Below are positions 1,415-19,521 of a stretch of 64,000 nt of DNA, piece by piece. This stretch comes from Escherichia coli (GTDB taxonomy: Bacteria > Pseudomonadota > Gammaproteobacteria > Enterobacterales > Enterobacteriaceae), in the NCBI RefSeq assembly GCF_009931435.1, contig NZ_CP043414.1; one strand, written 5' to 3'. The notes under the pieces were generated by a model, which did not search any database, was not told where the DNA came from, and saw only the letters and a program-made list of their open reading frames with translations. The position numbers and the translations under genes are program-made. How positions within the stretch are numbered: position 1 is the stretch's first letter; every line of letters starts with the position of its first letter.

Positions 1415-1416
1415 GT

Positions 1417-2748
1417 ATGGCAACCACCCGCAACAAGGTGATGTGGCAGGAAGGGATGCTGATGCGCCCACACCATTTCCAGCAACAGCAGCGTTACAAC
1501 GACTACCTGGATAACCAGCGTTTCCGGGCCATGAATGATTTATCCTGGGGATTTACCGAACTCACCCTCAACAATGAACTGCTGGCGCAGGGTAAGATCA
1601 TGATTGACAGCGCGTCAGGCACACTGCCCGACGGCACCGTCTTTTCTATCCCCGACCAGGACGCACTGCCCGATCCGCTGCACCCGCAAAATTTTCCGGA
1701 CGAAAGAAGCCGCAATATCTACCTCGCTCTGCCGGTCGCCAGTGATGTGAGAAATGAAATCAGCGACGGGCGGCGAATCGGGCGTTACCGGCTGAATTAT
1801 GCCGATGTCCGGGATTTGCATTCAGAAGAAGGCGACGCGCGAACACTGACGCTGGGACAACTGACGCCGCGCATTATGAGCGGTGCAGAAGATATGAGCG
1901 CCTATATCACGCTCCCGCTTTGCCGTATCAGCGATCGCCATGCCGACGGCTCCCTGACGCTGGATGACGATTTTATCCCCTCCTGCCAGAATATTCAGGT
2001 CAGTAAGAAACTGCGTGTTTATCTCAAAGAGGTACAGGGGGCCATTAGCGGACGGGCAAGCGATCTGGCAAACCGTATTGGCTCTCCGGCGCAGAGCGGC
2101 ATCGCGGATGTGGCGGAATTTATGATGTTGCAGTTGCTTAACCGTAACCAGACCCGGTTTACCCATCGCGCCCGCCGATCCCAGCTCCACCCGGAAGATT
2201 TCTACCTTGATCTTGCCGGGTTGCTGGGTGAACTGATGACCTTTACCGAGCCGTCGCGCCTGCCCTGCCCGCTTGATGTGTATGATCATCATGACCTGAC
2301 CAAAACATTTAAAACACTGTTACCGGAAGTCAAACGGGCGCTGCATACCGTACTGTCGCCAAGAGCCGTCAATCTGCCGCTGCATCTGCGTGACGGTATC
2401 TGGCAGGCCGATATCCATGACTCGGAACTGCTGCAATCTGCCACCTTTGTGCTGGCCGTGGCGGCAAATATGCCGGTCGATCAGATCCAGCGCCAGTTTA
2501 TCCAGCAGTCGAAAATTTCCTCGCCGGAAAAAATCCGCAATATGGTCAGTGTGCAGATCCCCGGCATTCCATTGCGTGCCCTGATGGTGGCTCCCCGTCA
2601 GCTTCCCTACCATTCCGGGTTCAGCTATTTCGAACTCGACAAGAGCGGACAGTCCTGGACAGAAATGGCTGCCGCCGGGGGCGTTGCGCTGCATGTATCC
2701 GGCAGTTTCCCGGATCTGAACATGCAACTGTGGGCGATAAGAGGGTAA
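1417..2748 (+). CDS. tssK: T6SS baseplate protein TssK
   Basis: 443 aa; N-terminus (NKVMWQEGMLMRPHHFQQQQRY) matches the conserved TssK N-terminal signature; purine-rich RBS upstream. Confidence 0.85.
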   Translation: MATTRNKVMWQEGMLMRPHHFQQQQRYNDYLDNQRFRAMNDLSWGFTELTLNNELLAQGKIMIDSASGTLPDGTVFSIPDQDALPDPLHPQNFPDERSRNIYLALPVASDVRNEISDGRRIGRYRLNYADVRDLHSEEGDARTLTLGQLTPRIMSGAEDMSAYITLPLCRISDRHADGSLTLDDDFIPSCQNIQVSKKLRVYLKEVQGAISGRASDLANRIGSPAQSGIADVAEFMMLQLLNRNQTRFTHRARRSQLHPEDFYLDLAGLLGELMTFTEPSRLPCPLDVYDHHDLTKTFKTLLPEVKRALHTVLSPRAVNLPLHLRDGIWQADIHDSELLQSATFVLAVAANMPVDQIQRQFIQQSKISSPEKIRNMVSVQIPGIPLRALMVAPRQLPYHSGFSYFELDKSGQSWTEMAAAGGVALHVSGSFPDLNMQLWAIRG

Positions 2749-2752
2749 GACG

Positions 2753-3514
2753 ATGGATGAGGGGTCACTGTCTCTGCCACCATTTACCGGATACGACGAA
2801 AAAAGCCAGCGCGACTATCATCTCGCGCTTCGTGGCAACAGCCTGAATCCGATGATCGACGCAGCCACGCCACTCCTCGGTATGGTGATGCGCCTTTCAA
2901 CCATGAACAGCCAGACGATGCCGGAGCATCTTTTTGCACAGGTGGTGACGGATGTTCAGGCCGTGGAGCAACTGCTTCAGGAGCAGGGCTACGAACCGGG
3001 CGTGATTATCTCGTTTCGCTACATCCTCTGCACATTTATTGATGAAGCGGCGCTCGGTAACGGCTGGTCGAACAAGAACGAGTGGATCAAACAGTCATTG
3101 CTGGTCCATTTCCACAACGAAGCCTGGGGTGGCGAGAAAGTTTTCATCCTGCTGGAGCGCCTGATCCGTGAACCCAAACGTTACCAGGATCTGCTGGAAT
3201 TTCTCTGGCTCTGTTTTTCTCTGGGATTTCGCGGGCGCTACAAAGTGGCAGCACAGGATCAGGGGGAATTTGAGCAGATCTACCGCCGCCTGTACCACGT
3301 TCTGCATAAACTGCGCGGCGATGCCCCTTTCCCGCTGTTACACCAGGACAAAAAAACCCAGGGCGGGCGTTATCAGCTCATCAGTCGCCTGACCATTAAA
3401 CATATTTTTTGTGGTGGCGTTGTCGTGCTGGCGTTGTTTTACCTGTTCTATCTGTTGCGGCTGGACAGCCAGACGCAGGACATCCTGCACCAGCTAAACA
3501 AATTACTTCGATAA
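2753..3514 (+). CDS. tssL: T6SS membrane-complex protein TssL (DotU family)
   Basis: 253 aa with a single C-terminal hydrophobic helix (GGVVVLALFYLFYLL), typical DotU/TssL architecture; follows tssK. Confidence 0.8.
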   Translation: MDEGSLSLPPFTGYDEKSQRDYHLALRGNSLNPMIDAATPLLGMVMRLSTMNSQTMPEHLFAQVVTDVQAVEQLLQEQGYEPGVIISFRYILCTFIDEAALGNGWSNKNEWIKQSLLVHFHNEAWGGEKVFILLERLIREPKRYQDLLEFLWLCFSLGFRGRYKVAAQDQGEFEQIYRRLYHVLHKLRGDAPFPLLHQDKKTQGGRYQLISRLTIKHIFCGGVVVLALFYLFYLLRLDSQTQDILHQLNKLLR

Positions 3515-3522
3515 GGACGTTT

Positions 3523-6282
3523 ATGATCCAGATTGATCTTCCCACGCTGGTAAAACGGCTTAACCTGTTCTCCCGCCAGGCGCTGGAGATGGCCGCCTCT
3601 GAATGTATGAGCCAGCAGGCAGCGGAAATTACCGTCAGCCATGTGCTTATTCAGATGCTCGCCATGCCACGCAGTGACCTGCGGGTTATTACCCGCCAGG
3701 GCGATATTGGCATGGAAGAGTTGCGCCAGGCGCTGACGGTGGAGAACTACACAACCGCCCGTTCTGCGGACAGCTACCCGGCGTTTTCCCCGATGCTGGT
3801 TGAGTGGCTGAAAGAGGGCTGGCTGCTGGCGTCGGCTGAGATGCAGCACAGCGAACTGCGCGGCGGCGTGTTGCTGCTGGCCCTGCTGCATTCGCCGCTG
3901 CGTTATATACCGTCTGCTGCCGCCCGGCTGTTGACCGGCATTAACCGTGACCGTCTGCAACAGGACTTTGTGCAGTGGACACAGGAGTCGACGGAATCAG
4001 TCGTGCCGGATGCAGACGGTAAAGGCGCAGGCACACTGACGGATGCTGCTGACACCCAGCTTGCCCGCTACGCCAAAAACATGACCGAAGATGCCCGTAA
4101 CGGCAGGCTTGACCCGGTACTGTGCCGCGACCACGAAATCGACCTGATGATCGACATTCTCTGCCGCCGCCGTAAAAATAACCCGGTGGTGGTGGGCGAA
4201 GCAGGCGTGGGTAAAAGCGCGCTGATTGAAGGGCTGGCGCTGCGCATCGTGGCAGGCCAGGTGCCGGACAAACTGAAAAACACCGATATCATGACCCTTG
4301 ACCTGGGCGCATTGCAGGCCGGGGCATCGGTGAAGGGCGAGTTTGAAAAACGCTTCAAGGGGCTGATGGCGGAGGTCATTTCCTCCCCGGTGCCAGTCAT
4401 TCTGTTTATCGACGAAGCGCATACCCTGATTGGGGCGGGCAACCAGCAGGGCGGGCTGGATATCTCCAACCTGCTCAAACCGGCGCTGGCGCGCGGCGAG
4501 CTGAAAACCATCGCCGCCACCACCTGGAGCGAGTACAAAAAATACTTCGAGAAAGACGCTGCCCTGTCGCGCCGCTTCCAGTTGGTGAAGGTCAGCGAAC
4601 CCAACGCCGCCGAAGCCACCATTATTCTGCGTGGTCTGTCGGCGGTCTATGAACAGTCTCACGGCGTACTGATTGATGATGACGCCTTGCAGGCCGCTGC
4701 GACATTAAGTGAGCGTTATCTCTCCGGGCGTCAGTTGCCGGACAAAGCGATTGATGTGCTGGATACGGCCTGCGCCCGCGTGGCAATCAACCTGTCATCG
4801 CCACCAAAGCAAATCTCAGCGCTGACCACCCTGAGCCACCAGCAGGAGGCGGAAATTCGCCAGCTTGAGCGCGAGCTTCGCATCGGGCTGCGTACCGACA
4901 CCTCGCGGATGACGGAGGTGCTGGTGCAGTATGATGAAACGCTGACGGCGCTGGACGAACTGGAAGCCGCCTGGCATCAGCAACAGACGCTGGTACAGGA
5001 AATTATCGCGCTGCGCCAGCAGTTGCTGGGTATGGCAGAAGACGATGCGGCGTCGTTGCCGGACGCAGATGCCGTGGGGGATATGCCGTCGGAGTCAGAG
5101 CAGGATAATACCGGTGCCGCACCGGCTGATGAAGCTGGCAGCGCACAGCCGGAAGAAACCGCTGAAACAGTTTCCCCGGTACAACGGCTGGCACAGCTTA
5201 CTGCCGAACTGGACGCCCTGCATAACGACCGGTTGCTGGTCTCCCCGCACGTCGATAAAAAACAGATTGCGGCGGTGATTGCCGAATGGACCGGCGTGCC
5301 GCTTAACCGCCTGTCGCAGAATGAAATGTCGGTCATCACCGACCTGCCAGTATGGCTGGGCGACACCATCAAAGGCCAGGACCTGGCGATTGCCAGCCTG
5401 CATAAACATCTGCTGACCGCACGCGCCGACCTGCGCCGTCCGGGACGCCCGCTTGGCGCGTTCCTGCTGGCTGGCCCCAGCGGCGTGGGTAAAACCGAAA
5501 CCGTCCTGCAACTGGCAGAGCTTCTCTACGGTGGTCGCCAGTACCTGACCACCATCAATATGTCCGAGTTCCAGGAGAAGCACACCGTCTCGCGGCTGAT
5601 TGGTTCCCCTCCGGGCTATGTCGGCTATGGTGAAGGCGGCGTGCTGACCGAAGCCATCCGCCAGAAACCCTACTCAGTGGTGCTCCTCGATGAAGTGGAA
5701 AAAGCGCACCCGGATGTGCTCAACCTGTTCTACCAGGCGTTTGACAAGGGCGAGATGGCAGACGGCGAAGGCCGCCTGATTGACTGTAAAAACATCGTCT
5801 TCTTCCTCACCTCCAACCTTGGCTACCAGGTGATTGTCGAACACGCCGATGACCCGGAGACCATGCAGGAAGCCCTCTATCCGATGCTGGCGGACTTCTT
5901 TAAACCTGCCCTGTTGGCGCGTATGGAAGTGGTGCCGTACCTGCCTCTGTCGAAAGAGACGCTCGCCACCATTATTGCCGGGAAACTCACCCGTCTGGAT
6001 AACGTGCTGCGCAGTCGCTTTGGTGCGGAAGTGATTATTGAGCCGGAAGTGACGGACGAAATTATGAGCCGCGTCACCCGAGCGGAAAACGGCGCAAGGA
6101 TGCTCGAATCAGTCATCGACGGCAACATGCTGCCGCCGCTCTCGCTGCTGCTGTTGCAGAAGATGGCAGCCAACACGGCGATTGCCCGGATTCGTCTGTC
6201 GGCGGCAGACGGTGCATTCACAGCAGACGTGGAAGATGCTCAGGACGACGAGTCCGTCACAGAGGATGAAACGGTTTTATGA
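3523..6282 (+). CDS. clpV: T6SS AAA+ ATPase ClpV (TssH)
   Basis: Two AAA+ modules with Walker A motifs GEAGVGKS and GPSGVGKT and ClpB-like architecture. Start placed at ATG 3523 (MIQIDLPTLVKRLN), downstream of the tssL stop; the ORF-track start at 3409 overlaps tssL and is rejected. Confidence 0.9.
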   Translation: MIQIDLPTLVKRLNLFSRQALEMAASECMSQQAAEITVSHVLIQMLAMPRSDLRVITRQGDIGMEELRQALTVENYTTARSADSYPAFSPMLVEWLKEGWLLASAEMQHSELRGGVLLLALLHSPLRYIPSAAARLLTGINRDRLQQDFVQWTQESTESVVPDADGKGAGTLTDAADTQLARYAKNMTEDARNGRLDPVLCRDHEIDLMIDILCRRRKNNPVVVGEAGVGKSALIEGLALRIVAGQVPDKLKNTDIMTLDLGALQAGASVKGEFEKRFKGLMAEVISSPVPVILFIDEAHTLIGAGNQQGGLDISNLLKPALARGELKTIAATTWSEYKKYFEKDAALSRRFQLVKVSEPNAAEATIILRGLSAVYEQSHGVLIDDDALQAAATLSERYLSGRQLPDKAIDVLDTACARVAINLSSPPKQISALTTLSHQQEAEIRQLERELRIGLRTDTSRMTEVLVQYDETLTALDELEAAWHQQQTLVQEIIALRQQLLGMAEDDAASLPDADAVGDMPSESEQDNTGAAPADEAGSAQPEETAETVSPVQRLAQLTAELDALHNDRLLVSPHVDKKQIAAVIAEWTGVPLNRLSQNEMSVITDLPVWLGDTIKGQDLAIASLHKHLLTARADLRRPGRPLGAFLLAGPSGVGKTETVLQLAELLYGGRQYLTTINMSEFQEKHTVSRLIGSPPGYVGYGEGGVLTEAIRQKPYSVVLLDEVEKAHPDVLNLFYQAFDKGEMADGEGRLIDCKNIVFFLTSNLGYQVIVEHADDPETMQEALYPMLADFFKPALLARMEVVPYLPLSKETLATIIAGKLTRLDNVLRSRFGAEVIIEPEVTDEIMSRVTRAENGARMLESVIDGNMLPPLSLLLLQKMAANTAIARIRLSAADGAFTADVEDAQDDESVTEDETVL

Positions 6283-7022
6283 GCAGGTTGCGCGTTTTCC
6301 GGCAGACAGGATGGTTTATCGCGGGCCTGATGGCGGGCTTACCCGCCAGTGCCGCGCCCGCAGAAACATCGTCAGTGGCCGGTGTGGCGGTAGCTGTCGC
6401 CACAGCGACACCGCCGGATGCGACAGCCACGTTACAGGCCATGCGGTCCTGTCGCCAGGAGACGGCGGCGCTGGAGCGGCTTGACTGCTATGACCGCCTG
6501 CTGGCACCCCTTTCTCCGTCAGGGTTTGACGGGGCGCTGGTCAAAGCCGGTTTTGTGGGCGAGGCCTGGACCCGCGCCACAGAGCAGGAAAAACGCCGCC
6601 AGGGCAACACCACAGAGCTGCTGGTGACGCAGGTGCCGGGAGAACGCCCGACGGTGGTGGTAACCACCCCGGCTATCGGCCATGTTCCGCCTCGCCCGGT
6701 GCTGATGTTCAGCTGTGTGGACAATATCACCCGGATGCAGGTGGCGCTGGTGCACCCTCTGGATGTCCATGATATCGCCGTCACCCTGAATGCCGACAGC
6801 CGGGTATTGCGCAGCCACTGGTTTGTGCGCGAGAACGGCACCCTGCTGGAGTCCAGCCGGGGGCTGTCCGGGATTGATGAAATTAAGCAACTGTTCGGCG
6901 CAAAAACGCTGACGGTGGATACCGGCGCAGATAACGCCGCCGGAAAGCTGACCTTTAACATTGACGGGCTAGCAAGGGCGATTGCCCCCCTGCGCGATGC
7001 CTGCCACTGGGCGGGAGAATAA
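6279..7022 (+). CDS. T6SS-associated secreted/periplasmic protein, VasI-like
   Basis: 247 aa with N-terminal signal peptide; occupies the vasI position between clpV and tssA; ATGA start/stop overlap with clpV. Confidence 0.55.
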   Translation: MSRLRVFRQTGWFIAGLMAGLPASAAPAETSSVAGVAVAVATATPPDATATLQAMRSCRQETAALERLDCYDRLLAPLSPSGFDGALVKAGFVGEAWTRATEQEKRRQGNTTELLVTQVPGERPTVVVTTPAIGHVPPRPVLMFSCVDNITRMQVALVHPLDVHDIAVTLNADSRVLRSHWFVRENGTLLESSRGLSGIDEIKQLFGAKTLTVDTGADNAAGKLTFNIDGLARAIAPLRDACHWAGE

Positions 7023-7026
7023 AAAT

Positions 7027-8442
7027 ATGGCAATGGACTTACGCGATCCGAATGTCTGGATATCGCACCTGCTGGAAAACCTGCCGGAAGAGAAACTGGC
7101 ATCGGCGCTGAAAGATGACAACCCGGACTGGGAGTATATCGACGGCGAAATCGTCAAACTGGGTTCACTGGCCCACAGCCAACTGGATATCCCGGAACTC
7201 CAGCGCCGGGGGCTGGTCATTCTGGCTTCGGAGAGTAAGGATTTTCGTCTGCTGGCACACCTGCTCAGAACCCTGCAACATGCCGGTGATCCACTGCTGG
7301 CACTGCGCCTGCTGGCGCTATACGTGGAACATTACTGGACTGTGGCCGCGCCGCAGAATATGGCGCATAAAAAACGCTTTGCCAGCCAGATCATTAAACG
7401 TTTTGAAACGGGTATTGAAGGCTTTTCACAGAACGCCGCCACCGCGCAGCGCGATGCACTATTAGGTGAACTGGCGAAACTGGCGCAGTGCTGGCAGTCA
7501 CATAACGCCCCGGAACTGGCAGAGGCTACTGATGATCTTTTTGCCCTGTACCAGCGTGCGTTTAATCGTGCGGCACCGGCTCCTGCCCACACTCCGGCGG
7601 CCTCCGGTAGTTCACCACAGACCACCGCCACGTCTGAAAGCGGCGTGACGCAAACCAGTGCTCCGGCTCCACAGATCGCCATCGACAGTCACGACGACAA
7701 AGCCTGGCGCGACACGCTGTTAAAAGTGGCGGCCATTTTATGTGAACGCCAGCCGGACTCGCCGCAGGGCTATCGCCTGCGCCGCCATGCCCTGTGGCAA
7801 TCCATCACCAGTACGCCCCAGGCGGAAAGCGATGGACGCCCCCCACTGGCTGCGGTCTCCGCCGATATGGTGGCAGATTACCATGCTCAGCTCGGTAGTG
7901 CCGATATGGCGCTGTGGCAGCAGGTGGAAAAAAGCGTACTGCTGGCACCCTACTGGCTGGACGGTCACTGCATTTCTGCACAGACGGCGCACCGTCTTGG
8001 CTATACCGCCGTGGCCGATGCCATCCGCGATGAAGTCGTTTCCTTTCTTGGCCGTCTGCCCGCGCTCGCTGATCTTCTGTTTAACGACCACACACCGTTT
8101 GTTTCTGAAAAAACGAAGCAATGGCTTGCAACTCAGCCAGGTAACCAGGCCGCGCCAGTCATACAGGTGAGTAATGAAGATATTCAGGCTGCGCGGTTGT
8201 GTTTTGATGAACAGGGGCTGGAAGCCGCCTTACGGTATCTGGATACGTTGCCCGCCGGTGAACCCCGCGACCAGTTTCACCGGCAGTATTTTGGCGCGCA
8301 GCTTATGGAAGAGGCGGGGCTGGTACAGCTTGCGCAGCAGCAGTACCGGATGTTGTTCAGGATGGGATTGCAGATGATGGTGGCAGACTGGGAGCCGTCC
8401 CTGCTTGAGCAGCTAGAACAAAAATTCACGGCAGAACAATAA
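7027..8442 (+). CDS. tssA: T6SS protein TssA (VasJ-type, ImpA N-terminal domain family)
   Basis: About 471 aa from ATG 7027 (MAMDLRDPNVW); sits at the vasJ position upstream of tssM; N-terminal region resembles the ImpA-N domain. Family assignment is by context and general resemblance. Confidence 0.65.
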   Translation: MAMDLRDPNVWISHLLENLPEEKLASALKDDNPDWEYIDGEIVKLGSLAHSQLDIPELQRRGLVILASESKDFRLLAHLLRTLQHAGDPLLALRLLALYVEHYWTVAAPQNMAHKKRFASQIIKRFETGIEGFSQNAATAQRDALLGELAKLAQCWQSHNAPELAEATDDLFALYQRAFNRAAPAPAHTPAASGSSPQTTATSESGVTQTSAPAPQIAIDSHDDKAWRDTLLKVAAILCERQPDSPQGYRLRRHALWQSITSTPQAESDGRPPLAAVSADMVADYHAQLGSADMALWQQVEKSVLLAPYWLDGHCISAQTAHRLGYTAVADAIRDEVVSFLGRLPALADLLFNDHTPFVSEKTKQWLATQPGNQAAPVIQVSNEDIQAARLCFDEQGLEAALRYLDTLPAGEPRDQFHRQYFGAQLMEEAGLVQLAQQQYRMLFRMGLQMMVADWEPSLLEQLEQKFTAEQ

Positions 8443-8460
8443 AAGAGAACAGGAGTTTTT

Positions 8461-11400
8461 GTGTTCAGATTACCAACACCCCGACTATTCAGCGGACTCA
8501 AATCAGCCCTGCGCCCGGCGATGCCCCGGTTTAAAGTTTCTGCATTCTGGCTGCTGATACTGGCGTGGATTTTCCTGCTGGTATGGATCTGGTGGAAAGG
8601 CCCGGCATGGACGCTGGATGAAGAGCAGTGGCTCAAACCACTGGCGAACCGCTGGCTGGCAACGGCGGCGTGGGGGATTATTGCCCTGGTGTGGCTTACC
8701 GTCCGGGTAATGAAGCGCCTGCAACAGCTTGAAAAAATGCAAAAGCAACAGCGCGAGGAAGCCGTTGATCCGCTCAGTGTGGAACTGAACGCCCAGCAGC
8801 GTTACCTCGACCGCTGGCTGCTGCGCCTGCAACGCCATCTCGACAACCGCCGTTTCCTGTGGCAGTTGCCGTGGTATATGGTCATCGGTCCTGTGGGCAG
8901 TGGCAAAACGACACTGCTGCGCGAGGGGTTTCCGTCAGACATTATTTATGCCCCGGAGGGCGCGCACGGCGCAGAACAACGCCTGTACCTCACGCCCCAT
9001 GTCGGTAAACAGGCGGTGATCTTTGATATCGACGGCACACTCTGCGCTCCCGCTGATGCGGATATCCTGCATCGCCGTCTGTGGGAACATGCCCTCGGCT
9101 GGCTGAAGGAAAAGCGCGCGCGCCAGCCGCTGAACGGGATTATTCTGACACTCGATTTACCCGATCTGCTGACCGCAGACAAACGCCGCCGCGAGCATCT
9201 GTTACAGACGCTGCGCAGCCGCTTACAGGATATACGCCAGCATCTTCATTGCCAGTTACCGGTTTACGTGGTACTGACCCGGCTTGATTTATTGCAGGGT
9301 TTTGCCGCCCTGTTTCAGTCACTGAACAGACAGGATCGCGATGCGATTCTGGGTGTTACGTTCACCCGCCGTGCTCATGAAAATGATGACTGGCGAACAG
9401 AGTTGAATGCTTTCTGGCAGACATGGGCGGATCGAATGAATCTGGCGTTGCCGGATCTGATGGTCACCCAGACTCACACCCGCGCGTCTTTATTTAGTTT
9501 TTCCCGCCAGATGCAGGGAAGCCGTGAACCGCTGATATCACTGCTGGAGGGTCTGCTTGACGGCGAAAATATGAACGTGATGCTGCGTGGTGTCTATCTC
9601 ACCTCTTCGCTTCAGCGTGGACAGATGGATGATATATTCACCCAGTCTGCTGCCCGCCAGTACCGACTGGGCAATAACCCACTGGCGTCCTGGCCTCTGG
9701 TGGACACCGCGCCTTATTTCACCCGCAGCCTGTTCCCGCAGGCATTACTCGCAGAGCCTAATCTGGCAACAGAGAGCCGCGCCTGGCTGATGCGTTCCCG
9801 TCGCCGCCTGACGGTTTTCTCTGCCACAGGCGGCGTGGCGGCACTGCTGCTCATCACCGGCTGGAATCACTATTACAACGGTAACTATCAGTCCGGCATC
9901 ACCGTGCTTAAGCAGGCCAAAGCCTTTATGGACGTGCCGCCTCCGCAGGGGGAAGATGACTTTGGTAACCTACAACTGCCGCTGCTGAACCCGGTACGCG
10001 ATGCCACACTGGCCTATGGCGACTGGGGTGACCGCAGCCGCCTGGCCGATATGGGACTGTACCAGGGGCGACGTATCGGGCCTTATGTGGAACAGACCTA
10101 TCTGCAACTGCTGGAGCAGCGTTACCTGCCCTCGCTGTTTAACGGGCTGGTCAAAGCGATGAACGCCGCACCGCCGGAGAGTGAGGAAAAACTCGCGGTG
10201 CTGCGCGTGATGCGAATGCTGGAGGACAAAAGCGGACGCAACAATGAGGTGGTGAAGCAGTATATGGCAAAACGCTGGAGCGAAAAGTTCCACGGACAGC
10301 GCGATATCCAGACACAACTGATGTCCCATCTTGACTACGCGCTGGCTCATACTGACTGGCATGCAGAGCGTCAGGCGGGCGACGGTGATGCCATCAGCCG
10401 CTGGACGCCATATGACAAGCCTGTTGCGACAGCACAGAAAGAACTGAGCAAACTGCCTGTCTACCAGCGGGTTTACCAGAGCCTGAAAACGCGGGCGCTG
10501 GGCGTTCTTCCTGCTGACCTCAATCTGCGTGACCAGGTAGGGCCAACCTTTGACCAGGTGTTTACATCTGCCGATGATAACAAACTGGTTGTTCCACAGT
10601 TTCTTACCCGTTACGGCCTGCAAAGCTATTTTGTAAAACAGCGCGATGAACTGGTTGAACTGACGGCGATGGATTCCTGGGTACTCAACCTCACCCGCAG
10701 CGTGAAATACAGTGACGCCGACCGCGCGGAAATTCAGCGCCAGTTGACCGAGCAGTATATCAGCGACTACACCGCCACCTGGCGGGCCGGGATGGACAAT
10801 CTCAATATCCGCAATTTTGAGTCCATTGGACAACTGACTGGCACTCTGGAGCAGGTTATCAGCGGCGACCAGCCTTTGCAGCGGGCGCTGACCGTGCTGC
10901 GTGACAACACACAGCCAGGCGTCTTTTCTGAAAAACTCTCTGCCAAAGAGCGGGATGAGGCCCTGGCAGAGCCGGATTACCAGTTACTCACCCGCCTCGG
11001 GCATGAATTCGCCCCGGAAAACAGTACCCTGACAGTACAGAAAGACAAAGAAAGCACGATGCAGGCCGTATACCAGCAGCTCACCGAGTTACACCGCTAC
11101 CTGCTGGCAATCCAGAACGCGCCTGTACCAGGGAGATCGGCGCTGAAAGCCGTGCAGTTAAGGCTTGATCAGAACTGCAGCGATCCAATATTCGCCACCC
11201 GCCAGATGGCAAAAACACTGCCTGCTCCGCTCAACCGCTGGGTAGGCAGGCTGGCTGACCAGGCCTGGCATGTGGTGATGGTGGAAGCCGTTCACTATAT
11301 GGAAGTGGACTGGCGCGACAGCGTGGTGAAACCGTTTAACGAGCAACTGGCAAATAACTATCCGTTTAATCCACGTTCTGCACAGGATGCCTCACTGGAT

Positions 11401-11985
11401 GCCTTCGAACGATTCTTTAAACCGGATGGCGTACTGGATACCTTCTACCAGCAGAACCTGAAACTGTTTATCGACAATGATCTGAGCCTGGAAGACGGCG
11501 ATAACAGCGTCATTATCCGCGAAGATATTATTGCGCAACTGGAAACCGCGCAGAAAATCCGTGACATCTTCTTCAGCAAACAGAACGGTCTGGGAACATC
11601 CTTTGCCGTGGAAACGGTATCGCTTTCCGGCAACAAACGCCGCAGCGTACTGAACCTTGACGGCCAGTTAGTCGATTACAGCCAGGGCCGTAACTATACC
11701 GCCCATCTGGTCTGGCCTAACAATATGCGCGAAGGCAACGAAAGCAAACTGACGCTGGTTGGTGCCAGCGGCGGCGCACCGCGCAGTATCAGCTTCAGCG
11801 GGCCGTGGGCGCAGTTCCGCCTGTTCGGGGCCGGACAACTGACCGGAGTACAGGATGGCAACTTTACCGTGCGCTTTAGCGTGGACGGTGGCGCGATGAC
11901 CTACCGTGTGCATACCGACACCGAGGATAACCCGTTCAGCGGTGGGTTGTTCAGCCAGTTTGGTCTGTCAGACACACTGTACTGA
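8461..11985 (+). CDS. tssM: T6SS membrane-complex protein TssM (IcmF family)
   Basis: 1174 aa; N-terminal transmembrane helices, Walker A NTP-binding motif GPVGSGKTTLL and long periplasmic C-terminal region; GTG start preceded by AGGAG at 8451-8455. Confidence 0.9.
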   Translation: MFRLPTPRLFSGLKSALRPAMPRFKVSAFWLLILAWIFLLVWIWWKGPAWTLDEEQWLKPLANRWLATAAWGIIALVWLTVRVMKRLQQLEKMQKQQREEAVDPLSVELNAQQRYLDRWLLRLQRHLDNRRFLWQLPWYMVIGPVGSGKTTLLREGFPSDIIYAPEGAHGAEQRLYLTPHVGKQAVIFDIDGTLCAPADADILHRRLWEHALGWLKEKRARQPLNGIILTLDLPDLLTADKRRREHLLQTLRSRLQDIRQHLHCQLPVYVVLTRLDLLQGFAALFQSLNRQDRDAILGVTFTRRAHENDDWRTELNAFWQTWADRMNLALPDLMVTQTHTRASLFSFSRQMQGSREPLISLLEGLLDGENMNVMLRGVYLTSSLQRGQMDDIFTQSAARQYRLGNNPLASWPLVDTAPYFTRSLFPQALLAEPNLATESRAWLMRSRRRLTVFSATGGVAALLLITGWNHYYNGNYQSGITVLKQAKAFMDVPPPQGEDDFGNLQLPLLNPVRDATLAYGDWGDRSRLADMGLYQGRRIGPYVEQTYLQLLEQRYLPSLFNGLVKAMNAAPPESEEKLAVLRVMRMLEDKSGRNNEVVKQYMAKRWSEKFHGQRDIQTQLMSHLDYALAHTDWHAERQAGDGDAISRWTPYDKPVATAQKELSKLPVYQRVYQSLKTRALGVLPADLNLRDQVGPTFDQVFTSADDNKLVVPQFLTRYGLQSYFVKQRDELVELTAMDSWVLNLTRSVKYSDADRAEIQRQLTEQYISDYTATWRAGMDNLNIRNFESIGQLTGTLEQVISGDQPLQRALTVLRDNTQPGVFSEKLSAKERDEALAEPDYQLLTRLGHEFAPENSTLTVQKDKESTMQAVYQQLTELHRYLLAIQNAPVPGRSALKAVQLRLDQNCSDPIFATRQMAKTLPAPLNRWVGRLADQAWHVVMVEAVHYMEVDWRDSVVKPFNEQLANNYPFNPRSAQDASLDAFERFFKPDGVLDTFYQQNLKLFIDNDLSLEDGDNSVIIREDIIAQLETAQKIRDIFFSKQNGLGTSFAVETVSLSGNKRRSVLNLDGQLVDYSQGRNYTAHLVWPNNMREGNESKLTLVGASGGAPRSISFSGPWAQFRLFGAGQLTGVQDGNFTVRFSVDGGAMTYRVHTDTEDNPFSGGLFSQFGLSDTLY

Positions 11986-11995
11986 GGAGGCAGGG

Positions 11996-13348
11996 ATGAA
12001 TAGTAACGTACTGACACAAACTATCGTTACCGGCAGTGACCCGCGCGGGCTGCCGGAATTCAGCGCCATCCGCGAGGAAATAAACAAAGCCAGCCACCCG
12101 TCACAGCCTGAGCTGAACTGGAAACTGGTGGAGTCGCTGGCGCTGGCGATTTTTAAAGCTAACGGTGTGGATTTACACACCGCCACCTACTATACGCTTG
12201 CACGGACACGGACACAGGGACTGGCGGGCTTTTGCGAAGGTGCGGAACTGCTGGCGGCAATGGTAAGCCACGACTGGGATAAGTTCTGGCCGCAGGGCGG
12301 CCCGGCGCGTACTGAAATGCTGGACTGGTTTAACTCCCGAACCGGCAATATTCTGCGTCAGCAAATCTCCTTTGCGGAATCCGACCTACCACTGATCTAC
12401 CGCACGGAGCGGGCATTGCAGCTTATCTGCGACAAACTCCAGCAGGTAGAGCTGAAGCGCGTTCCGCGCGTGGAGAATCTGCTCTATTTTATGCAGAACA
12501 CGCGTAAACGGCTTGAACCCCAGCCGAAGAGTAACGCCGAGAACACCTCACAGACCACGGTCAGAACGCTGATTTATGCACCGGAAACAATGGCTTCCTC
12601 CACGCCAGAAGCAGTAGTGCCTCCCCTGCCCGACCTGCCCGAGATGAAAGTGGAAGTGCGCAGTCTGTCAGAAAATCCCCCACAGGCCAGTGTGATGAAG
12701 CAAGGCAGTACGGTAAGAGGGTTTATCGCAGGGATCGTCTGTTCAGTGGCTGTCGCCTCAGCATTGTGGTGGTGGCAGGTCTATCCGGTGCAGCAGCAAC
12801 TGTTACAGGTTAACGACACCGCGCAGGGCGCAGCAACGGTGTGGATGGCCTCACCTGAACTCGAAAACTATGAGCGCAGGTTGCAACAGCTTCTTGGCGT
12901 CTCCCCGGTACAACCGCTGGAAACCGGAATGCAGATGATGCGTGTTGCCGACAGTCGCTGGCCGGAAAGCCTGCAACAGCAACAGGCCTCGACACAATGG
13001 AATGAGGCACTCAAAACCCGCGCACAGAGTAGCCCGCAGTTGCGTGGCTGGTTGCAGACCCGCCAGGACTTACATGCTTTTGCAGATCTCGTGATGCAGC
13101 GCGAGAAAGAGGGACTAACCCTTTCCTATATCAAAAATGTCATCTGGCAGGCGGAGCGGGGACTGGGGCAGGAAACACCCCTGGAATCCCTGCTGACGCA
13201 GTACCAGGATGCCCGTGCACAGAAGCAGAATACAGATGCGCTGGAAAAACAAATTAATGAGCGACTCGAAGGCGTGTTAAGCCGCTGGCTGCTGCTGAAG
13301 AATAACGTCATGGCAGAGGCGGCAACCGGGACCACGACCGGAAAATAA
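11996..13348 (+). CDS. T6SS accessory protein, VasL/TagA-like, membrane-anchored
   Basis: About 450 aa from ATG 11996 with GAGGAGG RBS; one internal hydrophobic helix (FIAGIVCSVAVASALWWW); occupies the vasL position immediately after tssM. Confidence 0.55.
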   Translation: MNSNVLTQTIVTGSDPRGLPEFSAIREEINKASHPSQPELNWKLVESLALAIFKANGVDLHTATYYTLARTRTQGLAGFCEGAELLAAMVSHDWDKFWPQGGPARTEMLDWFNSRTGNILRQQISFAESDLPLIYRTERALQLICDKLQQVELKRVPRVENLLYFMQNTRKRLEPQPKSNAENTSQTTVRTLIYAPETMASSTPEAVVPPLPDLPEMKVEVRSLSENPPQASVMKQGSTVRGFIAGIVCSVAVASALWWWQVYPVQQQLLQVNDTAQGAATVWMASPELENYERRLQQLLGVSPVQPLETGMQMMRVADSRWPESLQQQQASTQWNEALKTRAQSSPQLRGWLQTRQDLHAFADLVMQREKEGLTLSYIKNVIWQAERGLGQETPLESLLTQYQDARAQKQNTDALEKQINERLEGVLSRWLLLKNNVMAEAATGTTTGK

Positions 13349-13371
13349 TTATTTAGTTAAAGGAGATTATC

Positions 13372-13854
13372 ATGGCAAATATGAGTTATTTATCTTTAAG
13401 TGGGGAGACACAAGGGCTGATTTCAGCGGGTTGCTCAACGCTTGACTCTGTCGGAAACAAAGCGCAGTTAGAGCATAAAGATCAGATCATGGTTTATGCG
13501 CTAATGCACTCCATCTCAAGAAGTCAGAATGTCAATCATCATGAACTGGTCATCACCAAGCCTGTTGATAAATCCTCACCGTTGCTGGCAAAAGCACTTA
13601 GTGACAATGAAAAAATGACAGCGTGTGAATTTATACTCTACCGAACCAGTAAAGAGGGCATTAACCAGCCTTACTATAAAATAAATCTGTCAAAAGCCAG
13701 GATATCAAGTATTGATTTTGTCACACCTCATGCTGTTCTGGAAAAAGAACTGGAGCCACAGGAGAGAATTGCCTTTATTTATGAAGATATTTCCTGGGAG
13801 CATACGTTAGCCAGGACGAATGCAATGAGTAAATGGCAGGATCGTGTACAGTAA
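13372..13854 (+). CDS. hcp: T6SS tube protein Hcp (TssD)
   Basis: 160 aa; N-terminus MANMSYLSLSGETQG and overall size match the Hcp family; AAGGAG RBS; lower GC than the upstream core genes. Confidence 0.9.
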   Translation: MANMSYLSLSGETQGLISAGCSTLDSVGNKAQLEHKDQIMVYALMHSISRSQNVNHHELVITKPVDKSSPLLAKALSDNEKMTACEFILYRTSKEGINQPYYKINLSKARISSIDFVTPHAVLEKELEPQERIAFIYEDISWEHTLARTNAMSKWQDRVQ

Positions 13855-13896
13855 CATACTGCAATAACATAATAACTTACTATTACGGAGAGATAA

Positions 13897-14811
13897 ATGG
13901 CTGGTTTAAGGAATAATAACAACACACAGAATGCACAGTGGGCTGATTATGTGGGTGACATTCTTCGGGGGTCTCAGCCGATAAACCAGCTAGTACCTCA
14001 GCACCCTTATCTTAACGACATCCCACTCATTGATGAGTTAAGGCGTCAGAACACTCATCATGTTATTCTTTTGACATTTGATGTTGCAAAAAAAATACTC
14101 AACCCAATAACATCATTTGATTACATTCATTTTATCACTACACATCCTTCAGGTATAAAAGATACACTAGCCTGGTTAGTTAACGCGGGTAAATTAATGA
14201 CTGAGTTTGATGAAAATGGGAAAATTATATTTAACCTTAATACCTTAAAGTATACAAAAGCAAGTTACTTTGAAATACTTGGAGAGAAATATATAAAAAT
14301 CACAACATCCAGCCCCTGGCTTTTAGAAAAGCTCGGTAAATATATTTTCTCTTCACGAGCGCCTCAAGTTCTGGAGCTCGCTATTGGCTGGCGAGGAGCT
14401 TTATCTGAATCAATAAAAGGAGTTAAGTTCTGTATCTGGTTTTCAGTAGCCTGGAGAACCATAGAATTTATTATGAGTTCAGAGCGAGATCTGGTTAATT
14501 TTCTTGGTGATTTTTCAATGGATGTGGCCAAAGCAGTGATTGCAGGCGGTGTTGCAACCGCTATTGGAAGCCTGGCTTCTTTTGCCTGTCTTAGTTTTGG
14601 CCTTCCAGTAATTCTTGTAGGAGGAGCAATTTTACTTACAGGGATAGTGTGTACAGTTGTTTTAAATGAAATCGATGCTCAATACCATTTATCAGAAAAA
14701 TTAAAAGATGCAATTAGAGATGGACTAAAACAGCAACAGGAACTTGATAAATGGAAAAGGGAAAACATGACTCCATTTATGTATGTTCTTAACACCCCCC
14801 CCGTGATATGA
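13897..14811 (+). CDS. Hypothetical protein with C-terminal glycine-rich transmembrane helices; candidate T6SS effector
   Basis: 304-aa ORF 42 nt downstream of hcp with RBS; AT-rich; C-terminal third has 2-3 hydrophobic helices with small-residue motifs (VIAGGVATAIGSLASFACLSF, LPVILVGGAILLTGIVCTVVL). The C-terminal 112 codons from an internal ATG at 14473 appear to match what I recall as the K-12 yafU remnant (from memory, unverified). Confidence 0.6.
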   Translation: MAGLRNNNNTQNAQWADYVGDILRGSQPINQLVPQHPYLNDIPLIDELRRQNTHHVILLTFDVAKKILNPITSFDYIHFITTHPSGIKDTLAWLVNAGKLMTEFDENGKIIFNLNTLKYTKASYFEILGEKYIKITTSSPWLLEKLGKYIFSSRAPQVLELAIGWRGALSESIKGVKFCIWFSVAWRTIEFIMSSERDLVNFLGDFSMDVAKAVIAGGVATAIGSLASFACLSFGLPVILVGGAILLTGIVCTVVLNEIDAQYHLSEKLKDAIRDGLKQQQELDKWKRENMTPFMYVLNTPPVI

Positions 14812-14820
14812 GGATTAACT

Positions 14821-15288
14821 ATGTGTTTACATGTTAAATTGAAAGAGTTTCTTTCGATGTTTTTTATAGCCATGTTATTTTTCCCTGCATTCAATGCTTC
14901 TTTGTTTTTTACCGGAATTAAACCTCTATACTCAATAATAAAAGGCTCCACGGAAATATTTTATGATTGGAGAATGTTGATTCTATTCTTCGGTTTCATA
15001 TCGTTTTCCTTGTTAAATATTCATGTAATTTTACTAACGATAATAAAATCATTCTTAATAAAAAAAACAAAGGTAATCAATTTCGCCACAAACATAACAA
15101 TACAGCTAACTCTTATATTTTTACTAATAGCTATCGTAATAGCACCTTTAATAGCTCCTTTTGTCACAGGATATGTCAATGCTAATTATCACCTCTGCGG
15201 TAATAACACGGGGATTTTCCCAGGAGCAATCTATATTAAAAATGGCATGGAATGTAATAATGATTATATTTCTCACAAGGAAGATTAA
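14821..15288 (+). CDS. Small polytopic inner-membrane protein; candidate immunity protein (possibly the ykfM homologue)
   Basis: 155 aa, extremely AT-rich, at least three predicted transmembrane helices; starts 9 nt after the stop of the 304-aa gene. Position relative to yafT and aspV matches my recollection of K-12 ykfM. Confidence 0.55.
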   Translation: MCLHVKLKEFLSMFFIAMLFFPAFNASLFFTGIKPLYSIIKGSTEIFYDWRMLILFFGFISFSLLNIHVILLTIIKSFLIKKTKVINFATNITIQLTLIFLLIAIVIAPLIAPFVTGYVNANYHLCGNNTGIFPGAIYIKNGMECNNDYISHKED

Positions 15289-15429
15289 GCAGTTAAATAT
15301 TATAAAACAAACAGTTTTTAACTCCGGATTCCATGTCCTTTTTTGCACTGTCTTTGTCAGGAAAAAATTTCTTATGCAAAGAATTTTGTATTATTGCCGC
15401 CAGAAATCCCTGCCGGCAGATATAATTTA

Positions 15430-16540: not shown

Positions 16541-16617
16541 TTGGCGGAACGGACGGGACTCGAACCCGCGACCCCCTGCGTGACAGGCAGGTATTCTAAC
16601 CGACTGAACTACCGCTC
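16541..16617 (-). tRNA. aspV: tRNA-Asp (anticodon GUC)
   Basis: 77-nt exact match in reverse complement to E. coli tRNA-Asp (GGAGCGGTAGTTCAGTCGGTTAGAATACCTGCCTGTCACGCAGGGGGTCGCGGGTTCGAGTCCCGTCCGTTCCGCCA). Confidence 0.95.
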
Positions 16618-16750
16618 CGCGTTGTGTTCCGTTGGGAACGAGGCGAATATTACGGATTGCCTCACCCTTCGTCAATGGTTTTTCTCATCTTTTGAATCGT
16701 TTGCTGCAAAAATCGCCCAAGTCGCTATTTTTAGCGCCTTTTACAGGTAT

Positions 16751-17482
16751 TTATGCCCGCCAGAGGCAGCTTCCGCCCTTTTTCTGCACCAGATCGAGAC
16801 GGGCTTCATGTGCCGCAAGCTCTTCATCTGTCGCAAAAACAACGCGTAACTTACTTGCCTGACGCACAATGCGCTGAATTGTTGTTTCACCTTGTTGCTG
16901 TTGTGTCTCTCCTTCCATCGCAAAAGCCATCGACGTTTGACCACCAGTCATCGCCAGATAAACTTCCGCAAGGATCTGGGCATCGAGTAATGCCCCGTGC
17001 AGCGTTCGTTTACTGTTATCTATTTCGTAGCGGGCACATAACGCATCGAGGCTGTTGCGCTTACCGGGAAACATTTTCCTCGCCACCGCAAGGCTATCGG
17101 TGACCTTACAGAAGGTATTGGTCTTCGGAATATCGCGCTTAAGCAACGAAAACTCGTAGTCCATAAAGCCGATATCGAACGCTGCGTTATGGATCACCAA
17201 CTCAGCGCCGCGAATATAGTCCATGAACTCATCGGCTACCTCGGCAAATGTGGGCTTATCGAGCAAAAACTCATCGGCAATACCATGTACGCCAAAGGCT
17301 TCTGGATCCACCAGCCGATCGGGTTTGAGATAAACGTGAAAGTTATTGCCCGTCAGGCGACGGTTCACCACTTCAACGGCACCAATCTCAATGATCTTGT
17401 GGCCTTCATAGTGCGCACCAATCTGGTTCATACCGGTGGTTTCAGTATCGAGAACGATCTGGCGTGTAATTGCAGTGCTCAT
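16751..17482 (-). CDS. dnaQ: DNA polymerase III epsilon subunit (3'-5' proofreading exonuclease)
   Basis: Translation [20 protein letters not shown]... matches DnaQ over the full length; the ORF-track start at 17491 adds three codons, start taken at 17482. Confidence 0.95.
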
Positions 17483-17545
17483 AGCGGTCATTTATGTCAG
17501 ACTTGTCGTTTTACAGTTGATTCAATTACAGGAAGTCTACCAGAG

Positions 17546-18013
17546 ATGCTTAAACAGGTAGAAATTTTCACCGATGGTTCGTGTCTGGGTAATCCTGGAC
17601 CCGGGGGTTACGGCGCTATTTTACGCTATCGCGGACGCGAGAAAACCTTTAGCGCTGGCTACACCCGCACCACCAACAACCGTATGGAGTTGATGGCCGC
17701 TATTGTCGCGCTGGAGGCGTTAAAAGAACATTGCGAAGTCATTTTGAGTACCGACAGCCAGTATGTCCGCCAGGGTATCACCCAGTGGATCCATAACTGG
17801 AAAAAACGTGGCTGGAAAACAGCAGACAAAAAACCAGTAAAAAATGTCGATCTCTGGCAACGTCTTGATGCTGCGCTGGGGCAGCATCAAATCAAATGGG
17901 AATGGGTTAAAGGCCATGCCGGACACCCGGAAAACGAACGTTGCGATGAACTGGCTCGTGCCGCAGCGATGAATCCCACACTGGAAGATACGGGCTATCA
18001 AGTCGAAGTTTAA
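17546..18013 (+). CDS. rnhA: Ribonuclease HI
   Basis: 155 aa from ATG 17546 ([23 protein letters not shown]...), matching RNase HI; the longer ORF-track frame from 17189 overlaps dnaQ and is rejected. Confidence 0.95.
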
Positions 18014-18732
18014 GCCTGTGGTTTACGACATTGCCGGGTGGCTCCAACCGCCTGGCGAATTCGTGGCTTGTTTTTACTCTGTTTCATCGGATTTAGCGTT
18101 AAAGGAATAGTCCGTTTCCGGGCGACAATAAGTTGTAAGCAACCAAGCGCAGGAATATGCGCATTCAATAGTTTTCCACCGTGTTTGTTCCACGGGAGAA
18201 CGTGGAAACGGCTGGCGTGTAACACTTCAAAATTCAACAAAGAGAGCCAGTCCAGCTGCCGCATCAGAGTAAACATCCGGCTATTATAGGGTGAGGTTTT
18301 TCGCAATACCGGCACAAGTTTGCGTAATCCCATTAAACTGATGGGATTGAAGCCGCTAATGACCAACCAACCATCATCAATCAATACCCGATCGGCTTCA
18401 CGTAATAATCGATGCGGATCGGTGCACCACGGCAATGTATGTGCCAGTAGACAAACATCAACGGATTTATCGGCAAAAGGAAGATGAAGTGGGTCCGCCT
18501 GCACCTGGACAGGCATTCCTTGCGCAGAAACATTCACTTGATGAGAAACCGCGCACGCTTCGCAATTGATTTCTGCGCTTAAATTGCCAATCTTAAGCAG
18601 ATGAAAACCATACATTTTAGTGAACCACGGGTTGAGCTGGCGCTCCAGCGCTTTGCGATAAAGCTCTCCCCAGGGCAAATCGCCCCAGCAATCAGGAGCC
18701 ACGACAGTTTGAGGGACTCTTGCCGGTTTCAT
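18010..18732 (-). CDS. yafS: SAM-dependent methyltransferase YafS
   Basis: Translation [22 protein letters not shown]... consistent with YafS; start taken at the second in-frame ATG (18732); 4-nt overlap with the rnhA stop. Confidence 0.85.
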
Positions 18733-18762
18733 CACAACCTTCCGTTTCACACTGAGAGGTAA

Positions 18763-19521
<759 letters not shown>

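Follow-up and report, generated by a model that had tools for sequence, protein, structure and literature searches.

Interdigitated promoters probably serve the divergent dnaQ and rnhA genes of an Escherichia coli strain with a spacer 1 bp shorter than usual

The genes dnaQ and rnhA, which encode DNA polymerase III's epsilon subunit and RNase HI, diverge from a 63-bp spacer in the Escherichia coli DNA studied here (the window, a single stretch of 64,000 nucleotides from contig NZ_CP043414.1, to which all unprefixed positions refer). We consider it highly probable that this region is an interdigitated pair of sigma-70 promoters, carried in this strain on a spacer that is 1 bp shorter than usual. 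The arrangement is interdigitated or face-to-face, not back-to-back within the 63 bp. It offers a textbook case of a short divergent spacer that does not hold its promoters, their upstream halves being written in the first codons of the neighboring gene. The locus itself is already known, as the ortholog of the classical E. coli dnaQ-rnhA divergent locus. What is new is confined to details: the private 63-bp form, its link to a long open reading frame (ORF) artifact, and a promoter footprint at synonymous sites in the neighbor's first codons.

Results

The locus and its gene starts

Both genes are identified by their products. The 243-aa product scores 393.4 bits against the NF004316 equivalog model for DNA polymerase III epsilon (cut-off 196), and the 155-aa product scores 265.5 bits against the NF001236 equivalog model for RNase HI (cut-off 160). 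Their start codons can be read directly from the sequence: that of dnaQ appears as CAT at 17480-17482 (ATG when read on the minus strand), that of rnhA as ATG at 17546-17548. The same two starts are used in the PGAP annotation of NZ_ABACVG020000001.1 (strain 2020CK-00188), a record with 100% identity to window bases 16700-18100; the identity of this interval to 5422 other complete E. coli genomes is 95-99%. Protein structures agree as well. The RNase HI chains of PDB 1RNH and 2RN2 align over residues 1-155 and begin at the same residue as the rnhA product, and chain D of 5FKU (epsilon) aligns over 1-243, with the epsilon chains beginning MSTAITRQ and thereby matching the dnaQ start. A preliminary description of this DNA had placed dnaQ on the minus strand and rnhA on the plus strand with 63 bp between their start codons, and the sequence bears this out (Table 1).

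The gene context is tRNA-Asp / dnaQ / rnhA / yafS / gloB, with dnaQ and rnhA adjacent and divergent. We retrieved 80 Enterobacteriaceae loci with DnaQ and found the divergent arrangement in 76; in the remaining four the rnhA start could not be located, and one of these loci is truncated. In a published survey, the order gloB-kerV(yafS)-rnhA-dnaQ occurred in 51% of 197 proteobacterial genomes.

The dnaQ frame stays open for three more codons upstream of its start, as far as a conserved in-frame ATG at 17491..17489 (minus strand). This upstream ATG is present in all 77 sequences with a readable dnaQ 5' end, and no recognizable Shine-Dalgarno sequence precedes either dnaQ ATG. One metagenome-assembled Pluralibacter genome lacks the canonical dnaQ ATG (MTAINTA...). 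The annotated ATG at 17482 is the start to keep.

Table 1. Positions of genes, transcription signals, and conserved segments of the dnaQ-rnhA region in the window.
Feature	Position	Strand	Basis or remark
dnaQ coding sequence (DNA polymerase III epsilon, 243 aa)	16751..17482	-	NF004316, PGAP, PDB epsilon chains
rnhA coding sequence (RNase HI, 155 aa)	17546..18013	+	NF001236, PGAP, PDB 1RNH/2RN2
dnaQ-rnhA spacer, 63 bp	17483..17545		K-12 and 5423 of 5424 E. coli genomes have 64 bp
Private 1-bp deletion site (K-12 CAGTT[C]GATTC)	17518..17519		+9/+10 of the main dnaQ transcript
Artifactual 5' lengthening of the rnhA frame on the strand antisense to dnaQ, not a gene	17189..17545	+	274-aa ORF 17189..18013
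Main dnaQ transcription start	17527	-	K-12 236021; leader 45 nt here, 46 nt in K-12
Extended -10 of the main dnaQ promoter, TGgTAGACT (TAGACT 17539..17534, TG 17542..17541)	17534..17542	-	7 nt upstream of the mapped start
-35-like TCTACC (17562..17557) and A/T tract (17569..17562), positions -28 to -47	17554..17574	-	In rnhA codons 3-9
Minor dnaQ-sense start	17503	-	K-12 236046; Cappable-seq score 5.0
Minor dnaQ-sense start, inside rnhA codon 4	17557	-	K-12 235991; Cappable-seq score 24.4; PWM hit GAAAAT predicts the exact position
Minor dnaQ-sense start, inside rnhA	17611	-	K-12 235937; Cappable-seq score 21.0; PWM hit TTTTCT-16-TAAAAT predicts the exact position
rnhA Shine-Dalgarno AGGAAG, 10 nt before the ATG	17530..17535	+	Sequence; within invariant block 17528-17548
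rnhA-sense start inside dnaQ codon 17; would have a 114-nt leader, antisense to the 5' end of dnaQ	17432	+	K-12 236117; stationary phase only
Candidate rnhA -35, TTGCAG	17470-17475	+	17 bp before TATGTC
Candidate rnhA -10, TATGTC	17493-17498	+	Predicted start near 17505-17510
Candidate rnhA extended -10, TGtCAGACT (TGTCAGACT)	17495-17503	+	Predicted start near 17505-17510
Weak rnhA-sense hit, TTTACA -17- AAGTCT	17510-15, 17533-38	+	Would give a leaderless start at ~17545
Near-invariant block, dnaQ codons 1-6; contains TTGCAG	17465-17482		Alignment of 74; entropy 0.187
Near-invariant block GGTCATTTATGTCAGACT(T), also given as GGTCATTTATGTCAGACTT	17487-17504		17489-17503 invariant save one column
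Near-invariant block, rnhA Shine-Dalgarno through ATG (on the other strand, dnaQ -10 and TG)	17528-17548		Alignment of 74
Near-invariant block, rnhA codons 3-9	17554-17574		Alignment of 74
Variable, indel-prone linker common to both leaders	17505..17527		Holds every inter-genus length difference and the window's deletion

A private 1-bp deletion in the spacer

In K-12 MG1655 the spacer is 64 bp long (236003..236066). All 63 bases of the window's spacer match K-12 in an alignment, and a single C is absent between 17518 and 17519. An 83-bp query centered on the spacer has an exact match in one of 5424 complete genomes, that of the source strain, and all others carry the 64-bp form. The ordinary 64-bp form reads CAGTTCGATTC at the deletion site. 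The window thus does not have the K-12 spacer length, a variation within the locus that gives no ground for excluding it from membership. Across the Enterobacteriaceae loci, spacers measure 52, 62, 63, 64, 65 or 66 bp.

Because the 63-bp form is unique among 5424 genomes, it might be an assembly or sequencing error in a strain that truly has the normal 64 bp. However, the absent base does not lie within a homopolymer. Comparison with the nearest genome, AP027764.1 (98.2% identity over 18.5 kb), gives 23 indels, of which those placed on the annotation are noncoding, and no frameshift was seen in an annotated gene, so that the pattern looks like real divergence and not like random error. Spacers of 62, 63, 65 or 66 bp also occur naturally in other genera, with their indels in the same linker. 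We regard the deletion as plausibly real and an error as distinctly unlikely.

Situated in the nonconserved linker common to both leaders, the deletion is most likely neutral. The predicted fold of the dnaQ leader is weak, and the deletion hardly alters it (-9.2, over 88 nt, versus -9.7 kcal/mol), which again argues that it is probably neutral. If it did alter the ratio of epsilon to RNase HI, the mutation rate or R-loop handling in the lineage could change, and nothing suggests so.

The deletion also accounts for a feature that had been noticed from the sequence alone and dismissed, correctly, as an artifact: the rnhA frame is open far upstream into dnaQ, giving a 274-aa ORF antisense to that gene. 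With a 64-bp spacer, the rnhA frame stays open for just 135 nt upstream, with a GTG at -111 as its first start; in the 63-bp phase, it is open for 504 nt and reaches an ATG at -357 (17189). The long extension exists because the 1-bp deletion shifts the phase. It is not conserved, as spacer lengths vary among genera in steps that are not multiples of 3, and in one species the frame meets a stop 7 codons upstream. The locus has little importance beyond annotation hygiene, for which the rnhA start is 17546 and not the in-frame ATG at 17189.

The main dnaQ promoter reaches into rnhA

We placed transcription start sites by moving published K-12 positions (K) to window positions (x) through the near-identical alignment, with x = 253549 - K for x <= 17518 and x = 253548 - K for x >= 17519. 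Kim et al. 2012 mapped the K-12 dnaQ start to 236021, with 122 reads and a 46-nt leader, and the Klebsiella pneumoniae start to 263193, which also has a 46-nt leader and is preceded by near-identical sequence. The K-12 start has a score of 405 in the plus-strand rows of the Cappable-seq table (Ettwiller 2016), which cover the dnaQ direction. It was seen again with 203 reads, in all four conditions, by Cho et al. 2014, who assigned it to sigma-70. The corresponding position in the window falls 3 bp away from the rnhA Shine-Dalgarno sequence and 19 bp away from the ATG of that gene.

The sequence before this start has the features of a sigma-70 extended -10 promoter, namely a TG at -15/-14, one intervening base, and a hexamer with A2 and T6. 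The primary 5' end mapped in the K-12 (236021) and K. pneumoniae (263193) literature falls in the interval 6-8 nt downstream of the hexamer. The extended -10 element is invariant in 74 unique Enterobacteriaceae sequences and is the best dnaQ-sense hit of an approximate position weight matrix (PWM); on the opposite strand, it overlaps the rnhA ribosome-binding region. Transferred to the window, the K-12 and K. pneumoniae data place the main start of dnaQ transcription at 17527 on the minus strand, behind this extended -10 promoter.

Only part of the promoter fits between the genes. The -10 hexamer (17534-17539) and the TG (17541-17542) are within the spacer, and the -35/upstream half, at approximately 17557-17574, is in rnhA. 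The segment 17554..17574 also contains GAAAAT, the -10 of a minor dnaQ-sense promoter. The preliminary description had argued that the two promoters must overlap back-to-back in the 63 bp and had looked to the spacer for their start sites. Physical overlap does hold, but containment in the 63 bp does not, since the upstream half of the dnaQ promoter is in rnhA codons 4-9. Moreover, starts are found outside the spacer on both strands: dnaQ-sense at 17557 and 17611, within rnhA, and rnhA-sense at 17432, within dnaQ. The start codons thus do not enclose both sets of starts and all core elements.

The three top dnaQ-sense PWM predictions, 17527, 17611, and 17557, coincide exactly with three of the four Cappable-seq positions. 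No score of this approximate matrix rises above shuffled sequence, and we used it for positional agreement with mapped starts only. Cho et al. 2014 reported an additional dnaQ-sense start at 236027, with 35 reads. A scan of 17250-17800 for consensus promoters and terminators gave no hit, and an Rfam search of the region matched tRNA-Asp as the sole family. Several motif matches were considered by eye and rejected. A sigma-E-like match, GAACTG...TCTGA, has a spacing of 12 nt instead of 16; one half-site of a LexA-like match fails; and the best DnaA-box-like match, ATTTTCACC, has two mismatches.

Conservation extends into the first codons of both genes

The 74 unique sequences from the Enterobacteriaceae loci were aligned, and 78 Enterobacteriaceae sequences were used for the analysis of synonymous sites. 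The alignment separates a series of near-invariant blocks from the variable linker that is common to both leaders (Table 1). Of the 125 six-codon windows in rnhA, the one with codons 4-9 shows the least synonymous-site entropy, 0.039 versus a gene mean of 0.651. Relative to the main dnaQ start, these codons span -29 to -46 of its promoter. In dnaQ, the lowest values of 175 windows (mean 0.619) belong to codons 12-17 (0.165) and then to codons 1-6 (0.187). Judged from these alignments, synonymous-site entropy confirms an apparent constraint beyond that on the protein. The frozen 5' synonymous sites of both genes could have an alternative cause, in that translation initiation, and not the promoter of the opposite gene, could constrain them.

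The rnhA promoter

Transcription in the rnhA direction is sparse in the maps of Kim 2012 and Cho 2014. For exponential phase, Kim 2012 reports just a 2-read rnhA-sense site far inside dnaQ. In Cho et al. 2014 (Tables S4 and S6), 236117 is the sole rnhA-sense start, with 20 reads and in stationary phase only; our PWM finds no convincing -10 upstream of the corresponding position, 17432. Neither of these RACE-based data sets contains an rnhA-sense start within the spacer. The start tables of Mendoza-Vargas 2009 and SMRT-Cappable-seq list neither dnaQ nor rnhA. Among rnhA-sense promoter candidates, none scores above shuffled sequence with the PWM, those in the 17487-17504 block reaching 3-5 bits.

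The geometry of the locus constrains where rnhA transcription can begin. With just 3 bp between the main dnaQ start and the rnhA Shine-Dalgarno sequence, an rnhA leader that carries this sequence would start at or to the left of 17527, so that the 5' ends of the two transcripts would either abut or overlap. We tentatively suggest, from sequence and conservation, that the rnhA promoter of growing cells may be located at 17470-17503, inside the invariant block. TACAGT (17512-17517) was considered as a conserved rnhA -10 and rejected, as its sequence varies from genus to genus and Kosakonia, Trabulsiella, and Yokenella have lost it through deletion.

Discussion

A model of two interdigitated promoters

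We propose the following model for the locus. RNA polymerase bound at the dnaQ promoter (approximately -55 to +20) would cover roughly 17507-17582, a span that would include the whole rnhA translation-initiation region together with every possible short-leader rnhA start. With those starts occupied by the dnaQ-bound polymerase, the rnhA promoter would have to be much weaker and to be found further left. It may overlap the dnaQ leader and first codons, using TTGCAG followed by TATGTC or TGtCAGACT and starting near 17505-17510. The additional rnhA start at 17432 inside dnaQ may contribute in stationary phase. Judging from this geometry, binding of the two polymerases would be mutually exclusive, and the two mRNAs would be complementary at their 5' ends over approximately 18-23 nt for the predicted rnhA start and over 96 nt for the stationary-phase start. 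The expected outcome is that transcription of RNase HI would be kept low relative to that of epsilon and that the two outputs would be linked. The strong imbalance of 5' reads (122-203 for dnaQ versus at most 2 for rnhA in growing cells) is in keeping with a dnaQ promoter that dominates and an rnhA promoter that is weak and occluded.

Alternative explanations

One alternative is a pair of complete promoters placed back-to-back inside the 63-bp spacer, with both transcripts starting there without overlap. We consider this very improbable. The main dnaQ start and its -10 are indeed within the spacer, but this start leaves just 18 bp before the rnhA ATG, and the -35/upstream half of the same promoter is in rnhA codons whose synonymous sites are frozen. 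For rnhA, the weak TTTACA-17-AAGTCT pair would give a start at approximately 17545, and the deletion even improves its spacing from 18 to 17 bp and its score from 5.2 to 6.5; such a leaderless transcript, however, would leave the conserved Shine-Dalgarno sequence unused, and Kim 2012 and Cho 2014 report no rnhA-sense start in the spacer. Starts outside the spacer on both strands also speak against this arrangement. A different possibility is that rnhA is transcribed mainly from 17432, inside dnaQ. Its 114-nt leader would then be fully complementary to the dnaQ mRNA over the latter's first 96 nt, and the locus would act as a divergent excludon in which antisense pairing, RNase III cleavage, and collision make expression of the two genes mutually exclusive, especially in stationary phase. 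As the only rnhA-sense start in Cho 2014, 17432 is backed by 20 reads and is within a region of RNA polymerase/sigma-70 binding; overlapping 5' ends are found in 35% of E. coli divergent operons. Yet its few reads come from a single condition, it is absent from the exponential-phase data of Kim 2012, and it has no convincing -10 or -35 upstream. The strong synonymous constraint on dnaQ codons 12-17 (0.165, the most constrained window of the gene) covers +1 to +18 of this transcript, and so is downstream of the start and not at a promoter; it also falls on DTETTG, the catalytic Exo I motif. In addition, dnaQ-rnhA is not listed among divergent excludons detected in at least 50% of RNA-seq samples. 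Taking both sides together, we think that rnhA is somewhat unlikely to depend mainly on this start.

The invariant blocks might also not be promoter elements at all, and could instead represent either a site bound by a regulator or, within the dnaQ leader and taking in the upstream AUG, an RNA element that controls translation of epsilon. This would account for the invariance of 17489-17503 across genera despite its poor rnhA-sense promoter matches. The in-frame upstream ATG in all 77 readable sequences, the Pluralibacter genome without the canonical ATG, and the fact that neither dnaQ ATG follows a recognizable Shine-Dalgarno sequence point in the same direction. On the other hand, the leader has no Rfam match and folds weakly (-9.2 kcal/mol over 88 nt), and the invariance of the blocks leaves no covariation signal to use. 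No motif of a known regulator was found by eye, the DnaA-box-like and LexA-like matches being imperfect, and PDB and PGAP both use the downstream ATG. We therefore rate this explanation as unlikely. A bolder form of it would take the 17487-17504 block, the upstream AUG at 17491, and the frozen first codons as an undescribed conserved control element, serving either alternative or regulatory initiation of epsilon or as a regulator site that couples proofreading with RNase HI; the deletion would then shift the balance of epsilon and RNase HI and, with it, the mutation rate. We consider that quite improbable. An interdigitated sigma-70 promoter pair remains our preferred explanation of the locus.

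Comparison with known systems

Overlapping transcription at this locus was described early. The title of Maki, Horiuchi & Sekiguchi 1983 (PNAS 80:7137) states an overlap of promoter regions, and that of Nomura, Aiba & Ishihama 1985 (J Biol Chem 260:7122) refers to 'convergent overlapping dnaQ-rnh genes', that is, to overlapping transcription. The K-12 dnaQ-rnh region has the same genes in the same orientation, with the same neighbors (tRNA-Asp, yafS, and gloB), and matches the window at 63 spacer bases. It differs in having a 64-bp spacer, whereas the window lacks one C and has the 63-bp form seen in one of 5424 genomes. The dnaQ promoter in turn resembles other extended -10 (TGn) sigma-70 promoters in its TGgTAGACT element, its poor -35 (TCTACC), and its start 7 nt past the hexamer.

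Overlapping 5' transcript ends are common among divergent genes: of the 388 divergent operons in K-12, 136 have them (Conway et al. 2014, PMC4161252). The dnaQ-rnhA locus would resemble the excludons described there and in ExcludonFinder 2025 (PMC12288877) in its facing or interdigitating promoters and predicted complementary leaders. It differs in that its predicted overlap is short, approximately 18-23 nt, with 96 nt reached from the stationary-phase start only. ExcludonFinder does not include dnaQ-rnhA among its divergent excludons (at least 50% of RNA-seq samples) and lists yafS-rnhA as convergent. The absence of dnaQ-rnhA from the RNA-seq-called divergent excludons of MG1655 indicates that a substantial 5' overlap does not stand out in bulk data.

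A close parallel is found in the same window. The divergent yafS-gloB pair has an even shorter spacer of 33 bp (18733-18765), and its K-12 starts are face-to-face: yafS starts at 18763, and gloB starts at 18701, 18690, and 18457, all of them inside yafS. The genes differ, and the yafS promoter is stronger (225 reads).

The dnaQ 5' end and the spacer

An additional in-frame ATG lies ahead of the annotated dnaQ start and is present in 77 of the 77 Enterobacteriaceae sequences with a readable dnaQ 5' end, where it sits within one of the invariant blocks of the alignment. The canonical ATG is absent in one metagenome-assembled Pluralibacter genome, in which the N-terminus reads MTAINTA... (locus L083, 1501-1530). 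Neither the upstream nor the annotated dnaQ ATG is preceded by a Shine-Dalgarno sequence, and the downstream ATG is the start used by both PDB and PGAP. The coordinates of these and the other features discussed here are collected in the table.

Features at and around the dnaQ–rnhA spacer (positions in the window)
Feature	Position	Strand or orientation	Remark
Octamer TGTAATTG, copy 1	17465-17472	plus	in dnaQ codons 4-6
Octamer TGTAATTG, copy 2	17530-17523	minus	spans main dnaQ start
In-frame ATG upstream of annotated dnaQ start	17489-17491	minus	three codons upstream
rnhA/yafS coding overlap	18010-18013	convergent	4 bp; stop codons with common bases
tRNA-Asp (aspV)	16542-16618		just downstream of dnaQ
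Type VI secretion gene cluster (tssM, tssH, tssA, tssK, ...)	1-15400		past tRNA-Asp, seen from dnaQ
yafS	18010..18732	minus
gloB	18766..19521	plus

Farther into the gene, codons 12-17 (17432-17449) are under the strongest synonymous constraint of all dnaQ six-codon windows, and codon 17, GGT, is invariant (77/77 sequences). This stretch of codons begins precisely at the position of the K-12 rnhA-sense start seen in stationary phase (236117), and it also encodes the catalytic Exo I motif DTETTG.

The two copies of the octamer TGTAATTG lie on opposite strands and form an inverted repeat about symmetric around the dnaQ–rnhA spacer, with 50 bp between them. The copies may be just two -10-like elements (TGTAAT).

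The spacer itself varies in length, measuring 52 bp in Kosakonia, Trabulsiella and Yokenella (comparison loci L047, L048, L051, L061, L064, L069, L072, L079 and L082, upstream of position 1501). All 12 of the missing bases come from the variable linker, which appears there as a 14-column alignment gap; the loss shortens both leaders and retains every invariant block.

A variable island and a divergent lineage

The type VI secretion cluster is a variable island adjoining the tRNA-Asp gene. Of 5426 genomes, only 2687 carry the complete cluster; the nearest relative has a truncated or rearranged version. The source strain represents a divergent E. coli lineage: among 5424 complete genomes, only one or two reach 99% identity in the stretches of the window tested, and the nearest genome matches with 98.2% identity over 18.5 kb.

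Neighboring gene pairs

Beyond rnhA, the convergent rnhA–yafS pair is listed as an excludon in E. coli MG1655 (PMC12288877). Strain FFFEB2 of E. coli carries a copy of IS26 between the rnhA 3' end and yafS (locus L003, 1581-2285), an insertion that splits these normally overlapping genes.

On its other side, yafS diverges from gloB across a spacer of just 33 bp (18733-18765). Carried over from K-12 (Cho 2014), the yafS start falls at 18763 on the minus strand, at a distance of 3 bp from the start codon of gloB, and the gloB starts fall at 18701, 18690 and 18457 on the plus strand, all within yafS. With a 5' overlap of about 63 nt, yafS–gloB is a clearer face-to-face arrangement than dnaQ–rnhA.
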